A stretch of DNA of 54,420 nucleotides from a virus (lineage: Duplodnaviria; Caudoviricetes): positions 1 through 54,420 of the IMG/VR virus record IMGVR_UViG_3300025671_000008; one strand, 5' to 3'. The position numbers and the translations under genes are program-made. How positions within the stretch are numbered: the stretch's first letter is position 1; each line of letters starts with the position of its first letter. The notes under the pieces were generated by a model that had not been told where the DNA came from, made no database searches, and was given only the letters and a program-made list of their open reading frames with translations. Positions 27,071-38,682 of the stretch are shown piece after piece.

Positions 27071-27199
27071 ATATATTTACTCATACCACGCAAGGCTAAG
27101 TATTCAGACAGTTGTTTTGGTTGTTTTGGGTGATGGTATTGGGATCAGGCATTGCATTGGCTTTGCCTGGTTTTTCCTTCCTTTCACTCAGGAGTTGTC

Positions 27200-27448: not shown

Positions 27449-27500
27449 CCCCCCTTGGGAGGCCGGTGCTGCGCCGGCCCCCCTCGGGGGGGTTTTGGTT
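27449..27500 (+). terminator. GC hairpin followed by T-rich tract
   Basis: GGCCGG-TGCTGCG-CCGGCC core with outer C/G arms, then TTTTGGTTTT. Confidence 0.55.
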
Positions 27501-27546
27501 TTGGTTGTTTTGGATGTTACTAGACCACTACACGGAGGTAGTAATC

Positions 27547-34297: not shown

Positions 34298-34570
34298 ATG
34301 ATTTCCAAAGAATCCCAGAACAACTTCCAAGAGTTGGTTCGAGTTTGTTCTCACGGCGAGATGTGTGTTGTCGAATGCTCGGATTCCAAAGACCGTAAGT
34401 ACCAGGTGATCTGTGCAGTGGTGGATCTTCCTGAGTTTGACGAAGCCGTGTACGTCCCCTTTGGTTTCATGTTGACACCCAACATGTACAACTTGCTGGA
34501 CCGCATCAAACCACCCGAGTCCCTCAAGGGTGAATGGGCTTGGCCCGAAAGCACCTTCTATTCGTCATGA
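34298..34570 (+). CDS. Hypothetical protein
   Basis: MISKESQNNF, ATGA-coupled to UDG. Confidence 0.6.
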   Translation: MISKESQNNFQELVRVCSHGEMCVVECSDSKDRKYQVICAVVDLPEFDEAVYVPFGFMLTPNMYNLLDRIKPPESLKGEWAWPESTFYSS

Positions 34571-35241
34571 ACCTGCCCCAATTTCCTTCGCATTCTTCAT
34601 GCACGTCTTGTGAGCTGCATCAAGAAGCCAATCATCCGGGGGTGCCGACTGCTCATTACGGGCAGTCGGTATTTCCTTCTCCAGACACACCGTTTCTCAT
34701 CGTCATCGGCATGAACCCTGGGTACCACGAAGACAGAACCAATGAATGCTTTGTCGGTCCCGCAGGAAAGATGCTGAAGAACGTGTACATGGAATCCCTT
34801 GGGATCCTCGACACGCATGTGGTGTACTTCACCAACGCAGTGCGATGCACCACGCCAGGCGACACCGGCCTCAAGAACAGTCACATCAAGAAGTGCTGGC
34901 CGCATACCCAGTCAGACATCAGAAACATCTCCGACTGGCACAATGTGGGGGGGAGCATCCTTTGCCTGGGAACACACGCAGCACAGGCTGCAACCAAACA
35001 CTTGATGGGTAAAGCTTTCTCCTTATCGAGAGCACTTGATAAGCAAGGCTTTCCTCTTCCGCCAATTTCCGACAACAAGTCACTTCAGTTTTTTGTGACA
35101 TATCACCCTGCGGCTGTGCTTCGAACGCAACGATTGAAGTATGCTGTCTCTGAACACCTTGACCTTATTGGACAGCATCTTCAGGGAGCCGTCGCATCGC
35201 CATCGCTTCCAATGATCATCCCACCAAGGAGTCCAAGGTGA
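34567..35241 (+). CDS. Uracil-DNA glycosylase superfamily protein (family 4-like, Fe-S Cys)
   Basis: CTSCEL, IGMNPGYHED...FVGPAGKML, TNAVRC, KKC, LCLG, TYHPAAVLR. Confidence 0.88.
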   Translation: MNLPQFPSHSSCTSCELHQEANHPGVPTAHYGQSVFPSPDTPFLIVIGMNPGYHEDRTNECFVGPAGKMLKNVYMESLGILDTHVVYFTNAVRCTTPGDTGLKNSHIKKCWPHTQSDIRNISDWHNVGGSILCLGTHAAQAATKHLMGKAFSLSRALDKQGFPLPPISDNKSLQFFVTYHPAAVLRTQRLKYAVSEHLDLIGQHLQGAVASPSLPMIIPPRSPR

Positions 35242-35492
35242 AAACCTCTGTAGAAAGAACCATGTCAATTGAGATTGAGATCCCAGTTGACATACACCTA
35301 GACGTTCATCCCTCAGCAGTTGACATCCTCGATGTCGAGTTCACTCAAAAGAAAAGTGATGTGCTTCACTACCTTCAGGAACTCATAGAAGAGTTTGCCC
35401 AAGACGAGAGCTTCGATAGCAGGCAACTTCTCGATGAAGCTTATGAAGATGCACAGGCACAGAAAGCTGATGACTTCCGAAAGGACAACTGA
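35238..35492 (+). CDS. Acidic hypothetical protein
   Basis: AAGGAG RBS, GTGA coupling. Confidence 0.6.
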   Translation: MKTSVERTMSIEIEIPVDIHLDVHPSAVDILDVEFTQKKSDVLHYLQELIEEFAQDESFDSRQLLDEAYEDAQAQKADDFRKDN

Positions 35493-35494
35493 AC

Positions 35495-37864
35495 GTGGAT
35501 GCTCCCATCATCTCGCTTGACATTGAAACCTACGGTGCCGCAAAGCATCGGCGAGATGGCCGGAAACTCCCTTCGCAGAAGTACTTTCATCCTCGCAAGT
35601 CCGAGTATTGGCAAGCAGTAGAAAAGAAAGATTTGATCCTGACCTGTGCCATCACTGTTGCCGAGTCAGACCCACGAGAGAACAAGACCTGGGACCGAGC
35701 ATCTATCCAAGCACTCAAGCCTGGTGAGACTTTCGTTCTCGAGATGGACAAGAGCATGCACCGAGAATGCCTGGCTCTTTGGCTGAAGCATGCTGACACG
35801 ATCATCGGATCGAACATCCAGTTCGACTTGCTCTTCCTCAGGGCCTACGACAACGCTTTCAAGTTCCTTCTGGACGGCAGGCACACGTACATCGATACGA
35901 CTGTGGTTGCTTACCTTTGGAATGAGTTGTCCTCTTCTCGCAGCTTGAAGAAACTTGGTCCTCTCCTGGGCCAGTTCACTTACGACGAGTCCCTTGCAGA
36001 AGGGAATCGATTTGCCAGCGTGTCAGATGACAAGCTCTCCAAGTACAACGCAGAAGACACACACAACACGCTGCTCGTGCTGGCCGAACTTGCACGTCGT
36101 ATGCCCACCAACACTGACAAGTTGTCAGAGTTCTGCATCAATCATTACAGCGGTGCGATTCACTCTGTCTTGTGCATGACCGAAGAGGGAATTCCTTTTT
36201 CCTCAATCGAACTCGAACAACTGCACGATGAACTAGAAGAAAAACTTGAAGTTGCTCGAGCGAAAGCAGAAGATTGCGGACTCATTCTTTCAGGCAAAGG
36301 TTCTGCCCAATCCAAGAATGAGTTCTTCAATGACGCAGTCACGCTGATCGAACGAGCTGGTCAGGAGAACATCCTCGATCTCCTGGACAAGACGCCTAAG
36401 ACACAGAAGATCTCACACTCTAAGAAAAACAGAGTGATTCTCAGCCAGTACCTCCCGGATTCACCGACGGGGAAAAGCCTTGTAAAGGACGGGCTTCACT
36501 GGTTTAGTCAGTTTCAAGACGCACAGAAACTGCTTTCTACATACGTGTTTCCGCTACTTCTTCACAAGCGGAATGATTCAACAAATCTCAAGTCGAGCAT
36601 AATTCCATGGCCAACACTGGATTCATCCCGAACACTGTTTGCTTCTGTCGACGACCAGAAGGAAGTCATTTCATTGAACAAGACGGAGACTCCATCAAGA
36701 TTGATGCCGGAGTCTTCTACGCTGTTCTCAAAGACATCGTCCCCAAAGACCTCGATCTCGATACCCTTCGTGCAATCCACGCCACTACAATCAAAGAAGT
36801 GCTGTATCGAGCAGGCGCTCAAGAACAATCAAAGCAGTACACCACTGAAGCTTCGGAAGAGATTCTCGATAAAGAGATCCCCCGCTGTTGCTGATGCTGC
36901 TGCCTACCCTTCATGGTTCATCACCCCAAGTCGGGTAAAGAATGATGAAGGTTCCGAGGGGGGGACTATTCAAGGTCGGATCACTTGTAAAGATCCATCT
37001 GCTCAGACCTTTCCCCCCCACATCAAAGAGTGCATGGCCTCCCGATTCGAGGGGGGTTCCATCGTAGGCATCGACTTGAGCCAGATTGAACTTAGGGTTT
37101 CAGCCCTGGTATCGGGCGAGCCCTCGATTCGCAACGCTTACATCAACGGAGAAGATCTGCACGCAACCCGTGCTCGATCACTGTGGCCTGACTACGACCA
37201 GGTACCCGAAGAGAAGAAGCGTCGAAGGCAGGTCGGGAAGATGATGAACTTTGCTGATCTCTTCCTGTCCTCAGCCAACACCATGCGAGAACAGGTGTAT
37301 GCCCAGAGCAATGGAGATATCGATCTGCCCATCGACGTGTTTAAGGAAGTAGTAAACACTCGGAATAAGATTCGACCGGTGCTTACAGCGTGGCAGAAAG
37401 AAATGATCTGGACCGCTAAAGCCCGACACCGAATTGAACTCCCGTTGACCGGTCAGTCTCGTTACTTCTCCGATATTGCCAAGGAGAGATCCGAGATTGT
37501 GAACTTCCCAATCCAAACGACTGCATCAAATCTGATGATGCAGATCCAGTTTCACTTACAGACAGAGCTAAACCGTCAGTTTCCGACGTACATTTCTGAA
37601 CGCCCCCGCTTGTTTCTTCAAGTATTCGATGCGGTGTACATTGACACACCACCCAAAATGGGGGGTATGATGAGGGACATCTTCAAGATCGCAATTGAAA
37701 AAGTGTGCAGCCCTTCCGGTTATTGGGGGCTCCTGACGAAGCACTACGATTCACCTCTAATTCCTCTTGAATTTGATGTTGAGGTTCTTGCGACAAGATC
37801 CCCCTCGGAGCCCCCCCATGAGCAATCAATACAAGCCAGATCCTGCCACGAAGGAGCGGCATAA
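35495..37864 (+). CDS. polA: Family A DNA polymerase with 3'-5' exonuclease
   Basis: ExoI LDIET, ExoII NIQFD, ExoIII YNAED; KLLSTY; motif A DLSQIELR; motif B R...KMMNF; NFPIQ; motif C QVFD. Confidence 0.92.
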   Translation: MDAPIISLDIETYGAAKHRRDGRKLPSQKYFHPRKSEYWQAVEKKDLILTCAITVAESDPRENKTWDRASIQALKPGETFVLEMDKSMHRECLALWLKHADTIIGSNIQFDLLFLRAYDNAFKFLLDGRHTYIDTTVVAYLWNELSSSRSLKKLGPLLGQFTYDESLAEGNRFASVSDDKLSKYNAEDTHNTLLVLAELARRMPTNTDKLSEFCINHYSGAIHSVLCMTEEGIPFSSIELEQLHDELEEKLEVARAKAEDCGLILSGKGSAQSKNEFFNDAVTLIERAGQENILDLLDKTPKTQKISHSKKNRVILSQYLPDSPTGKSLVKDGLHWFSQFQDAQKLLSTYVFPLLLHKRNDSTNLKSSIIPWPTLDSSRTLFASVDDQKEVISLNKTETPSRLMPESSTLFSKTSSPKTSISIPFVQSTPLQSKKCCIEQALKNNQSSTPLKLRKRFSIKRSPAVADAAAYPSWFITPSRVKNDEGSEGGTIQGRITCKDPSAQTFPPHIKECMASRFEGGSIVGIDLSQIELRVSALVSGEPSIRNAYINGEDLHATRARSLWPDYDQVPEEKKRRRQVGKMMNFADLFLSSANTMREQVYAQSNGDIDLPIDVFKEVVNTRNKIRPVLTAWQKEMIWTAKARHRIELPLTGQSRYFSDIAKERSEIVNFPIQTTASNLMMQIQFHLQTELNRQFPTYISERPRLFLQVFDAVYIDTPPKMGGMMRDIFKIAIEKVCSPSGYWGLLTKHYDSPLIPLEFDVEVLATRSPSEPPHEQSIQARSCHEGAA
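36607..36894 (+). CDS. Candidate nested gene (95 aa) in an alternative frame within polA
   Basis: Genome-typical codons; boundaries coincide with a Ser/Pro/Thr-rich insertion in PolA; no clear RBS. Confidence 0.5.
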   Translation: MANTGFIPNTVCFCRRPEGSHFIEQDGDSIKIDAGVFYAVLKDIVPKDLDLDTLRAIHATTIKEVLYRAGAQEQSKQYTTEASEEILDKEIPRCC

Positions 37865-38168
37865 GAAAATTGTTTCTCTTCTTAAGCAAGGCTACTCTGT
37901 TCAAGAAGTCTGCAAGCAGGTAAAGATCACACCCAAGCGGGTGTATGCAGTTGCTGAGCGAGCCTCTGTCTCAACTAATCCAATGGTTCATCCTCAATCA
38001 GATGATGAGAACTCTATCTGCCGATTGAACCATGCTGGTTGGAGTCTCAAGAAGATCTCTAAATACATGGGCCGAGAGACTCAGGCCATCACACGGGTGC
38101 TGAATCGGATCAAGGAAGATCCGGTGATGAACAAGACCAAGGATAGGTACGGAGAGTTTGAAGCGTAG
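37818..38168 (+). CDS. Double helix-turn-helix DNA-binding protein
   Basis: LLKQGYSVQEVCKQVKIT and AGWSLKKISKYMGR. Confidence 0.7.
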   Translation: MSNQYKPDPATKERHKKIVSLLKQGYSVQEVCKQVKITPKRVYAVAERASVSTNPMVHPQSDDENSICRLNHAGWSLKKISKYMGRETQAITRVLNRIKEDPVMNKTKDRYGEFEA

Positions 38169-38682
38169 CTGGGTAATCCTCCGGGACACACGGGAAAAGA
38201 AACCCCTAGCCTTTCCTGCCACGCTGCCTTGTCTCAACGATCAGCTCCCCCCCACATCTAAAGCCAGCCTTTCAGTACGCCTCGAGGTGGTGGATTCCAC
38301 TCTCACCACTGGGGACTACGTTCTGCAAGGGCACGAAGACCAGGTTCTCATTGAGAGAAAAGGTGGCCTTCGAGAGATTGCCGGCAACTGCCTCACCCGA
38401 GACGGTCGTCGGCGTTTCATTTCACAGATAGACAGGCTCAAGGCCCAGGCCAAGCACCCCTACCTGATGCTCGAGGGATCCCCTTTAGACCTCCAGAAAC
38501 CTGTTTCCAATGTGCCGAAACCGTTTCTTGCGTTGGATGCTATCCAAAGGATACTCCTGGAAAGAGGGGTACCTTTGCTGCTACTCCCCTCAACGACAGT
38601 CGCATCACGGCGTGCGATGGGGGAATGGGTGGCTCGACTCTTGATCAACGGAGCATTGACCCATGGCATGGATGACACATAA
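38158..38682 (+). CDS. ERCC4-domain nuclease (putative resolvase)
   Basis: DTREKKP, L.TGDY, IERK motifs. Confidence 0.85.
   Translation: MKRSWVILRDTREKKPLAFPATLPCLNDQLPPTSKASLSVRLEVVDSTLTTGDYVLQGHEDQVLIERKGGLREIAGNCLTRDGRRRFISQIDRLKAQAKHPYLMLEGSPLDLQKPVSNVPKPFLALDAIQRILLERGVPLLLLPSTTVASRRAMGEWVARLLINGALTHGMDDT

Follow-up and report, generated by a model that had tools for sequence, protein, structure and literature searches.

A probable dual-coding gene nested out of frame in the family A DNA polymerase gene of a tailed phage

Background

Small genes embedded out of frame in larger ones are known from phages, for instance Rz1 inside Rz of lambda and gene B inside the replication gene A of phiX174. 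Here we describe a locus of this kind in the virus record IMGVR_UViG_3300025671_000008 (Duplodnaviria; Caudoviricetes) of IMG/VR, a complete record (54,420 bp; direct terminal repeats), which was analysed over its whole length and is called the window in the following. An open reading frame (ORF) of 95 amino acids is nested in the -1 frame of its family A DNA polymerase gene (PolA) and is probably a protein-coding gene of its own. Like Rz1 and B, it is a complete small same-strand reading frame in a shifted frame of a larger gene, presumably with its own start on the same mRNA. In contrast to these two systems, however, the host is a tailed-phage family A polymerase, and it is the nested frame that looks gene-like, whereas the host reads the same bases as a predicted disordered loop of low complexity. 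A further difference is that the nested gene appears to be dispensable, being swapped or lost among near-identical phages, and that unrelated ORFs occupy the same site elsewhere.

Another parallel is the spacer of the hepadnavirus polymerase, which is overlapped by the preS/S envelope gene. There as here, a variable and disordered polymerase segment may be tolerated since its bases encode a protein in another frame. Hepadnaviruses differ in being animal reverse-transcribing viruses, in the extension of the overlap over much of the genome and in having no discrete loop insert, and the resemblance implies no homology.

For phage DNA polymerase genes themselves, PMC3428280 describes a group I intron with a homing-endonuclease ORF in cyanophage Pf-WMP3. 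The sporadic occurrence of an insert with its own ORF is common to both loci; ours differs in showing no intron RNA signature and no endonuclease domain and in keeping the host frame open throughout the insert. Overprinting, the de novo birth of an overlapping gene, is the subject of the review PMC8227390; points of likeness are the two proteins made from the same nucleotides and the adaptive conflict between their frames. Unlike in overprinting, the nested frame looks older at our locus and the host-gene frame new, by codon usage and conservation.

A full-text literature search returned no report of a tailed-phage family A polymerase gene with another gene embedded in it out of frame, and a term search in the 2023 paper on the reclassification of PolA (PMC10201439) returned, in the matching parts of that paper, only a frameshift connected with exo/pol gene fission. 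Embedded phage genes as such are already known; what is new here is the apparently inverted age relation, in which the host frame is the one that resembles junk, and that such ORFs recur at a single loop.

Results

The nested ORF extends from the ATG at 36607 to the TGA at 36894 in the -1 (= +2) frame of PolA (35495..37864, an ORF of 789 aa with 3'-5' exonuclease and polymerase parts); all features described here lie on the plus strand. The ORF listing gives the same coordinates and translation as the initial annotation, and translation of the PolA frame confirms that it has no stop anywhere across the nested ORF. The latter has the layout of an embedded gene: complete, on the same strand, wholly within PolA and in a different frame. 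Its ATG, the first start after the upstream nested-frame stop, arises from the PolA codons CCA-TGG (Pro-Trp), read as CC-ATG-G. The Trp of 'IPW' is not conserved in PolA but imposed by this ATG. The insert had been estimated at about 97 extra residues. It is real, but the surplus over the closest insert-free relatives (L080 and L081) amounts to just 46 codons, i.e. the 138 nt at 36614..36751 that are missing there in a MAFFT alignment, and the last ~35 PolA-frame residues of the presumed insert (from about ..ALKNNQSSTPLKLRKRF..) are PolA sequence conserved throughout the clade.

The identity of the host gene is clear. PF00476 matches residues 490-734 (E 6.9e-22; 78.3 bits against a cut-off of 34.3), the PHROGs assignment is phrog_17, DNA polymerase (E 9e-47), and the profile matches the Taq, Klenow and Bst polymerases (E 1e-13 to 1e-22) from GGTIQGRITCKDPSAQ onwards, just past the insert. 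Homologs are numerous (1048 at E<=0.001), although polA gave no hit by blastn, at its setting for distant matches, in a collection of phages. An alignment of 19 of them is well conserved throughout, save for the stretch following ..SSIIP; DLSQIELR is invariant, and the Pol A catalytic domain with the motif A region is present. On its N-terminal side the insert is bordered by the KLLSTY helix, on its C-terminal side by the segment AYPSWF...GGTIQGRITCKDPSAQ (AYPSWF...GRITCKDPSAQ); this position is upstream of motif A and, according to the Klentaq topology, presumably near the thumb-palm junction. The genes next to PolA in the replication module encode a helix-turn-helix (HTH) protein, an ERCC4-type nuclease and a metallophosphoesterase.

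A pair of compensating assembly indels would mimic such a locus, as the initial annotation had pointed out. Contigs from three DNA runs that are not flagged as the source of the record (X11, X13 and X18) show 0 differing letters and 0 gaps over 36300-37200, and one X11 contig covers 36576-37200, that is the entire nested ORF with both junctions. The X18 contigs leave 36720-36890 uncovered, which is a hole in the contigs and not evidence of any kind. Assembly indels are therefore not the cause. Moreover, the stretch was found at half or more of the sampled words in 22 listed runs.

One argument for a gene comes from the selection acting on each frame. Pairwise comparisons of the core were made over 66 codons aligned on the nested protein, between the window and two relatives that carry the insert (L078 and L085), and the proportions of nonsynonymous and synonymous differences (pN and pS) were calculated by NG86, which is not designed for overlapping frames, so that the ratios are biased and have to be read comparatively rather than absolutely. 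In the nested frame, pN and pS were 0.264 and 0.512 for the window and L078, 0.342 and 0.842 for the window and L085, and 0.421 and 0.685 for L078 and L085. The corresponding values in the PolA frame were 0.311 and 0.358, 0.495 and 0.369, and 0.473 and 0.498. Among the insert-bearing relatives, pN/pS ranges from 0.41 to 0.61 in the nested frame and from 0.83 to 1.3 in the PolA frame, and the amino-acid identities of the three pairs, in the same order, are 0.56, 0.45 and 0.42 for the nested protein versus 0.47, 0.16 and 0.25 for the PolA reading. These values point to purifying selection on the nested frame in three diverged lineages.

Outside the core the relation is reversed. Between the window and L078, pN/pS in the PolA flanks is 0.20 and 0.17 in the PolA frame versus 2.07 and 2.48 in the nested frame. 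In the core (36607..36825, 73 codons) it is 0.58 in the nested frame (Fisher p=0.01) and 0.83 in the PolA frame (p=0.4), and in the last ~22-23 nested codons it is again the PolA frame that is constrained (0.41, p=0.0004, versus 1.34 in the nested frame). In this tail the identity is 0.43-0.64 in the PolA frame and 0.20-0.29 in the nested frame. Selection therefore changes frame, from PolA in the flanks to the nested frame in the core and back to PolA in the tail. The per-site substitutions follow the same pattern: at PolA codon positions 1, 2 and 3 they are 0.20, 0.09 and 0.47 upstream, but 0.25, 0.43 and 0.32 in the core, with the peak at PolA position 2, which is the wobble position of the nested frame. 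The nested stop lies at different positions in the window, L078 and L085. The frame-specific ratios together with the substitution peak suggest that the functional nested protein would comprise only the first ~70 residues, and that 36826..36894 is an unconstrained run-on over ancestral, conserved PolA sequence (..ALKNNQSSTPLKLRKRF..) until a chance stop.

The comparison with close relatives, whose DNA was taken from metagenome contigs, agrees with this picture. L078, L079, L082 (77% PolA identity) and L085 (71%) carry the insert, and L080 and L081 (75%) do not. Homologous nested ORFs are located at 4113-4379 in L078, 501-767 in L082 and 1821-2087 in L085, and the database proteins P0121 and P0122 match as well. 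Six nested sequences, 41-95% identical to the one of the window, share 22 invariant columns, and a three-frame translation reveals the conserved motifs FIPNT[VI].F..RP.., I.ID.GVFY.VLK, DTLRA[IL]DA, E.LY and EEQ in the nested frame, while the PolA-frame reading of the same bases varies almost freely. The opposite outcome, conserved PolA-frame residues and an alternative frame gaining stops, which according to the initial annotation would speak against a nested gene, was not observed in the insert-bearing relatives.

In L080 and L081, the remnant of the nested frame still aligns with ..DLDTLRAIHATTIKEVLY.. of the window but contains 5 stops, and the nested ATG is lost (CCT-TGG), whereas the PolA frame is open. 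The core deletion, the nested stops and the intact PolA frame imply that the nested gene would be a separable and dispensable unit, which is probably kept intact elsewhere by selection, and that the polymerase needs only its own frame to be open. Outside the loop, L080 and L081 share 0.89-0.98 of their DNA letters with L078 in every 100-nt bin, but in the four bins over 36495-36894 of the window this identity falls to 0.74, 0.68, 0.42 and 0.51. There L081 is closer to the window (0.80, 0.84, 0.58 and 0.75) than to L078. Since L081 is close to L078 elsewhere but window-like in the loop, the loop region appears to be a recombining cassette. Two observations on further relatives may be added. P0002, which is 86% identical to the window's polymerase overall, has a loop of the L078 type. 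L086 (62% PolA identity) is insert-free and already has CCA-TGG at the site (1639-1680), with an alternative frame of just 13 codons, which is either a precursor or a relic.

Long inserts at this site are not restricted to the relatives of the window. The distance between KxxSxY and GRITCK, which was parsed in 126 of 157 sources, is 41-59 residues in most of them and 96-107 in the wider clade of the window, but 142-180 in eight sources, namely the window, L078, L079, L082, L085, L104, L010 and L017. The last three belong to PolA lineages just 38-39% identical to that of the window. Their PolA-frame inserts consist of about 50% Ser/Thr/Pro and contain clean ORFs of 95 (L104), 124 (L010) and 129 aa (L017) in the same relative frame and with the same CC-ATG-G start. 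The nested proteins of L010 and L017 are homologous to each other and to P0123 and P0124, which are the only relatives found for the L010 type, a scan of viral contigs having returned its own contig alone. Homology between the nested proteins of the window type and those of L010, L017 and L104 was not detectable (hhalign probability 1.1%).

We also placed these loci on a PolA tree with the loop excluded, which comprises 67 of 104 anchored loci after truncated, X-containing and duplicate cores (including L085, L104 and L082) had been dropped. L010 and L017 form the sister group (support 100) of 16 loci whose linker has 11 residues, so that about 120 codons were added there, and the window clade lies within a group with linkers of middle length; the nested state needs 3 changes on this tree. 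Among the homologs, at least 11 PolA proteins with a long linker rich in Ser, Thr and Pro (fraction >=0.34) were found (P0001, P0002, P0003, P0005, P0030, P0031, P0033, P0034, P0035, P0038 and P0044) when the linker was parsed in 109 of 120 listed proteins. In P0030 (737 aa, 20 member sequences), the linker has 44% Ser/Thr/Pro and starts with ..VLLKWDSRR.., i.e. with Lys-Trp instead of Pro-Trp, and this lineage could have a further nested ORF starting at A-ATG-G. Repeat searches at the inserts of the window, L010, L017 and L104 gave no convincing target-site duplications or terminal inverted repeats.

How easily the PolA frame would remain open by chance was estimated by resampling synonymous codons for each nested protein from the codon usage of its own locus (20,000 trials). 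The chance of an open PolA frame was 0.27 for the window, 0.11 for L078, 0.031 for L085, 0.025 for L104, 0.005 for L010 and 0.006 for L017, and the frame is open in all six real loci. As a whole, this set of six is remarkable, even if the shared ancestry of the first three is allowed for. In agreement with what had been annotated, the codons of the nested frame are typical of the genome: the codon-usage score is 0.248 bits per codon, compared to a mean of 0.272 (standard deviation 0.119, n=307) for in-frame windows of the genome. The PolA frame scores 0.121 over the same bases, which is reported as above all 307 true +1 off-frame windows (maximum 0.133), and the third frame scores -0.680.

As seen from PolA, the nested gene reads as a loop without structure. 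In an AlphaFold model built on a 19-row alignment (mean predicted local distance difference test, pLDDT, 77.9), residues 375-447 (36617..36835) have a pLDDT below 50 with block means of 26-31 and no secondary structure, whereas the flanks reach 77-91. The Ser/Pro/Thr/Lys-rich, off-frame-like appearance of the insert, which had been noticed before, is borne out by this predicted disorder and by a Ser+Thr+Pro fraction of 0.38 versus 0.14 in the nested frame. This composition is a consequence of how the two frames are related: the nested protein is acidic, and GAN codons read one base later become codons starting with A (Thr, Ser, Lys, Asn and Arg).

Regarding the start of the nested ORF, CCA-TGG is present in 8 of 8 sources with a long nested ORF (the eight named above), while CCA makes up 14-37% of the Pro codons in these genes. 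A weak Shine-Dalgarno-like GAG (36595..36597, within TCGAGC) lies 9 nt upstream of the ATG in the window, L078 and L085, and the nested-free L080, L081 and L086 have TCAAGC or TCAAGT instead. In L010, L017 and L104 there is (A/G)GGAG 12 nt upstream, formed by the PolA residues GD or RS, which stand in place of the SS of the sister clade. These differences may be tied to the nested gene but are suggestive only; sites of the AGGAG/GGAGG type precede many genes of the window. A sigma-70 promoter scan of 35300-38300 gave 0 sites and two terminator-like sites, which is below the shuffled expectation, and no slippery heptamer of the form X-XXY-YYZ was seen at the frame junctions by direct reading, a dedicated frameshift-site program not having been run. 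With no slippery heptamer and no conspicuous promoter or terminator inside the gene, the likeliest route to the nested protein would be internal initiation on polA transcripts. From an estuary metatranscriptome library (X23), a 211-nt contig matches 36469-36679 at 100% and runs uninterrupted across the 5' junction. The same contig hints at an occurrence of the phage, or of transcripts from it, beyond the freshwater samples in which most of its copies were found.

The nested protein itself is without known relatives outside such loci. The initial annotation had proposed to look for free-standing homologs, but an exhaustive HMMER search of 1.84 billion representatives found none beyond two clusters, P0121 (95% identical) and P0122 (L085 type), and both are apparently nested copies. 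A hidden Markov model (HMM) of three nested proteins, run against the six-frame ORFs of 157 sources, likewise recovered nested copies only (the window with its duplicate L001, L078, L079, L082 and L085), with the next-best hit at E=1.2. None of the 6 nested proteins matched Pfam or PHROGs below E 0.05, and among the domains looked for there was no endonuclease (HNH, GIY-YIG, LAGLIDADG and others). The best score in the ESM Atlas was 0.85, under the threshold for a lead, and Foldseek against PDB and BFVD returned nothing at E<=0.001 for a query model with a pLDDT of 58. This AlphaFold model (6 rows; mean pLDDT 58.3) has strands at residues 11-14, 23-26 and 29-33 and helices at 34-44, 51-55 and 59-87. 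The predicted complex of PolA and the nested protein scored 0.00, which is no verdict and unusable either way. By hand counts of residues, all four nested families are acidic; the charge was computed only for the core of the window (D+E 11, K+R 8). The nested protein retains 43-49% identity where PolA keeps about 70-80%.

Some other features of the window and of PolA were observed in passing. The C-terminal tail of PolA (..SPSEPPHEQSIQARSCHEGAA; 37795-37864, residues 769-789, 21-24 residues) has a pLDDT below 50 and shares bases with the start of the following gene (37818-38168), which is read in a different frame and encodes an HTH DNA-binding protein (phrog_323, E 4.6e-09). This tail is conserved in P0002, P0003 and P0005 and absent in P0004, a protein without the nested gene; it may be a second short dual-coding stretch. 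In P0113 (886 aa), a distant PolA homolog, the polymerase is joined to a uracil-DNA glycosylase domain (PF03167). The 235-aa ORF that directly precedes the polA region (34534-35241) has no PHROG hit at E<=0.001. The ORF starts at 27133 and 27514 are each preceded by a near-identical G/T-rich repeat, gttgttttggttgttttgg (about 27110-27135 and 27490-27515), which could be a repeated regulatory or structural motif.

Discussion

The probable explanation of the locus is a small protein-coding gene (core ~70 aa, ORF 95 aa) that lies wholly inside the family A polymerase gene in its -1 frame, that is, true dual coding. A nested dual-coding gene tolerated as a loop had been the first of three readings offered in the initial annotation, and it gains support from the selection on the nested frame, the PolA frame that is kept open, the predicted disorder of the loop and the loss of the gene in L080 and L081. 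Ribosomes translating polA in frame 0 would produce the disordered Ser/Thr/Pro/Lys-rich loop of ~73 residues, and a second set of ribosomes, starting at the AUG at 36607 of the same mRNA, would produce a small acidic protein with three predicted beta-strands followed by helices. Such a gene can be lost again by in-frame deletion.

Several points weigh against dual coding. The selection signal between the window and L078 is modest (p=0.01) and derives from NG86 with its bias for overlapping frames. The chance of 0.27 for an open PolA frame in the window is unremarkable alone, and the three lineages of the window family share ancestry and are not fully independent tests of openness. The Shine-Dalgarno-like signal of the window is a mere GAG, and the sole expression datum, the 211-nt contig from the RNA library (36469-36679), could be DNA carry-over. 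Finally, the model of the nested protein is of low confidence (mean pLDDT 58.3), and with just two database clusters, both apparently nested, there is no free-standing ancestor to support an origin as an inserted gene.

Some of these points would also suit an unexpressed relic or by-product, with only PolA being translated and the insert serving as a variable disordered loop. The weak expression datum, the poor AlphaFold model of a protein with neither a known family nor a known fold, and the dispensability of the loop in L080 and L081 are all compatible with it. However, a relic would hardly have remained intact with pN<pS at synonymous divergences of 0.5-0.84 in three lineages, while the off-frames in the PolA flanks show pN/pS >2. 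The gene-typical codon usage and the 5 stops that the nested frame gained once its core had been deleted also argue against a relic, which we therefore regard as improbable.

The selection on the nested frame fits equally well with a -1 frameshift near the Pro-Trp codons, which would yield, instead of an independently initiated protein, a PolA truncated after about residue 371 (exonuclease and the N-terminal part of the polymerase) whose alternative C-terminus is the nested peptide. The dnaX tau/gamma pair is a precedent for a truncated product made by frameshifting. A short way ahead of the ATG the nested frame is already open, in L078 for ~40 codons, and in six sources the sequence AT-C-CCA-TGG could allow the Pro-tRNA to re-pair in -1. 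But the window and L078 have ATT-CCA, which permits no re-pairing, a nested-frame stop lies just 5 codons before the ATG in L085, and direct reading shows no X-XXY-YYZ heptamer from the nearest nested-frame stop upstream to the point where the conserved residues of the nested protein begin. Frameshifting also leaves unexplained why all 8 sources with a long nested ORF retain the ATG, with a Shine-Dalgarno-like motif upstream, and why the PolA frame is open. We consider it rather remote as an explanation.

Recoding in the stricter sense, with the nested peptide as part of PolA through a -1 and a later +1 shift (or bypass), had been a second suggestion of the initial annotation. The real polymerase would then possess a folded inserted domain, and conservation of the core in the nested frame and of the tail again in the PolA frame is the pattern expected from two frame changes. 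Such a polymerase would, however, not need an open PolA frame, yet all 6 loci have one, with probabilities as low as 0.005 in the resampling. By direct reading of the junctions there are no conserved shift sites or slippery heptamers, both the nested stop and the point at which constraint is handed over vary between lineages, and the tail of the nested ORF is unconstrained. In addition, the conserved ATG with its Shine-Dalgarno-like motif would remain without explanation, and each of the unrelated nested ORFs of 95-129 aa elsewhere would require its own pair of shift sites. All this makes recoding very improbable.

Removal of the insert beforehand, as a self-splicing intron or intein-like element, is the least credible reading; removal at the RNA level had been the third suggestion. 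In its favor, phage DNA polymerase genes interrupted by group I introns that carry endonuclease ORFs are described in PMC3428280 and PMC11812291, and mobile introns, too, occur sporadically among close relatives. Against it, Rfam gave four chance snoRNA hits and nothing else over 36300-37200 at E<=10, and the z-score of the RNA fold is +0.30. The nested ORF has no endonuclease or other Pfam/PHROG domain, the PolA frame is needlessly kept open, and the RNA-library contig is colinear across the 5' junction (weak evidence). As to an intein, conservation lies in the -1 frame relative to the host and not in the residues that the host frame encodes within the insert (identity 0.16-0.47).

If the nested ORF is a dual-coding gene, its codon usage and conservation suggest that of the two readings the nested one is older and the PolA-frame loop derived; a gene that existed before, or DNA resembling one, would then have been inserted into a tolerant loop. 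For L010 and L017, the ~120 codons in place of the 11-residue linker of the sister clade favor an insertion of coding DNA over overprinting by point mutations as the probable origin. The product would be a dispensable, fast-evolving accessory protein. Being small, acidic, fast-evolving, recombining and dispensable, it has a profile that suits a role in host take-over or counter-defence, which is a guess and doubtful as such, or one as an accessory partner of the replisome, which seems less likely still.

The ORFs at the same site in other lineages reflect either an independent settlement of unrelated genes or one ancient, fast-evolving gene that was lost many times, and the 11-residue linkers of the sister loci favor an independent gain in L010 and L017. 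We tentatively propose, as one possibility, that this surface loop of the polymerase clade is a recurrent harbor for whole accessory genes, which would be inserted out of frame at a Pro codon (CC-ATG-G) and read by the host gene as a disordered linker. At least two, probably three unrelated families (that of the window, that of L010/L017 and that of L104) would then have settled there independently, with the cassette being exchanged by recombination.

Conclusions

An essential replication enzyme tolerates 46-130 extra codons that mean little in the polymerase frame, the probable reason being that they spell a second gene. The case is also a caution against taking inserts of low complexity in viral polymerases for functional linkers. 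Gene callers forbid long overlaps on the same strand, so that genes of this kind stay unseen, and the nested ORF has been called only sporadically (P0121/P0122 and P0123/P0124). The gain, loss and recombinational swap of the nested gene among phages whose polA genes otherwise agree to as much as ~98% amount to a natural experiment on the origin of dual-coding regions and on the way in which two frames share selection. If the loop is indeed a recurrent harbor, a passenger lodged in an essential gene would be protected against every deletion that is not in frame, and Ser/Thr/Pro-rich loops in other phage core genes would be a search signature for hidden accessory, possibly anti-defence genes. 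'Insertional overprinting' would then be a route of gene gain and retention distinct from classical overprinting, introns and inteins.

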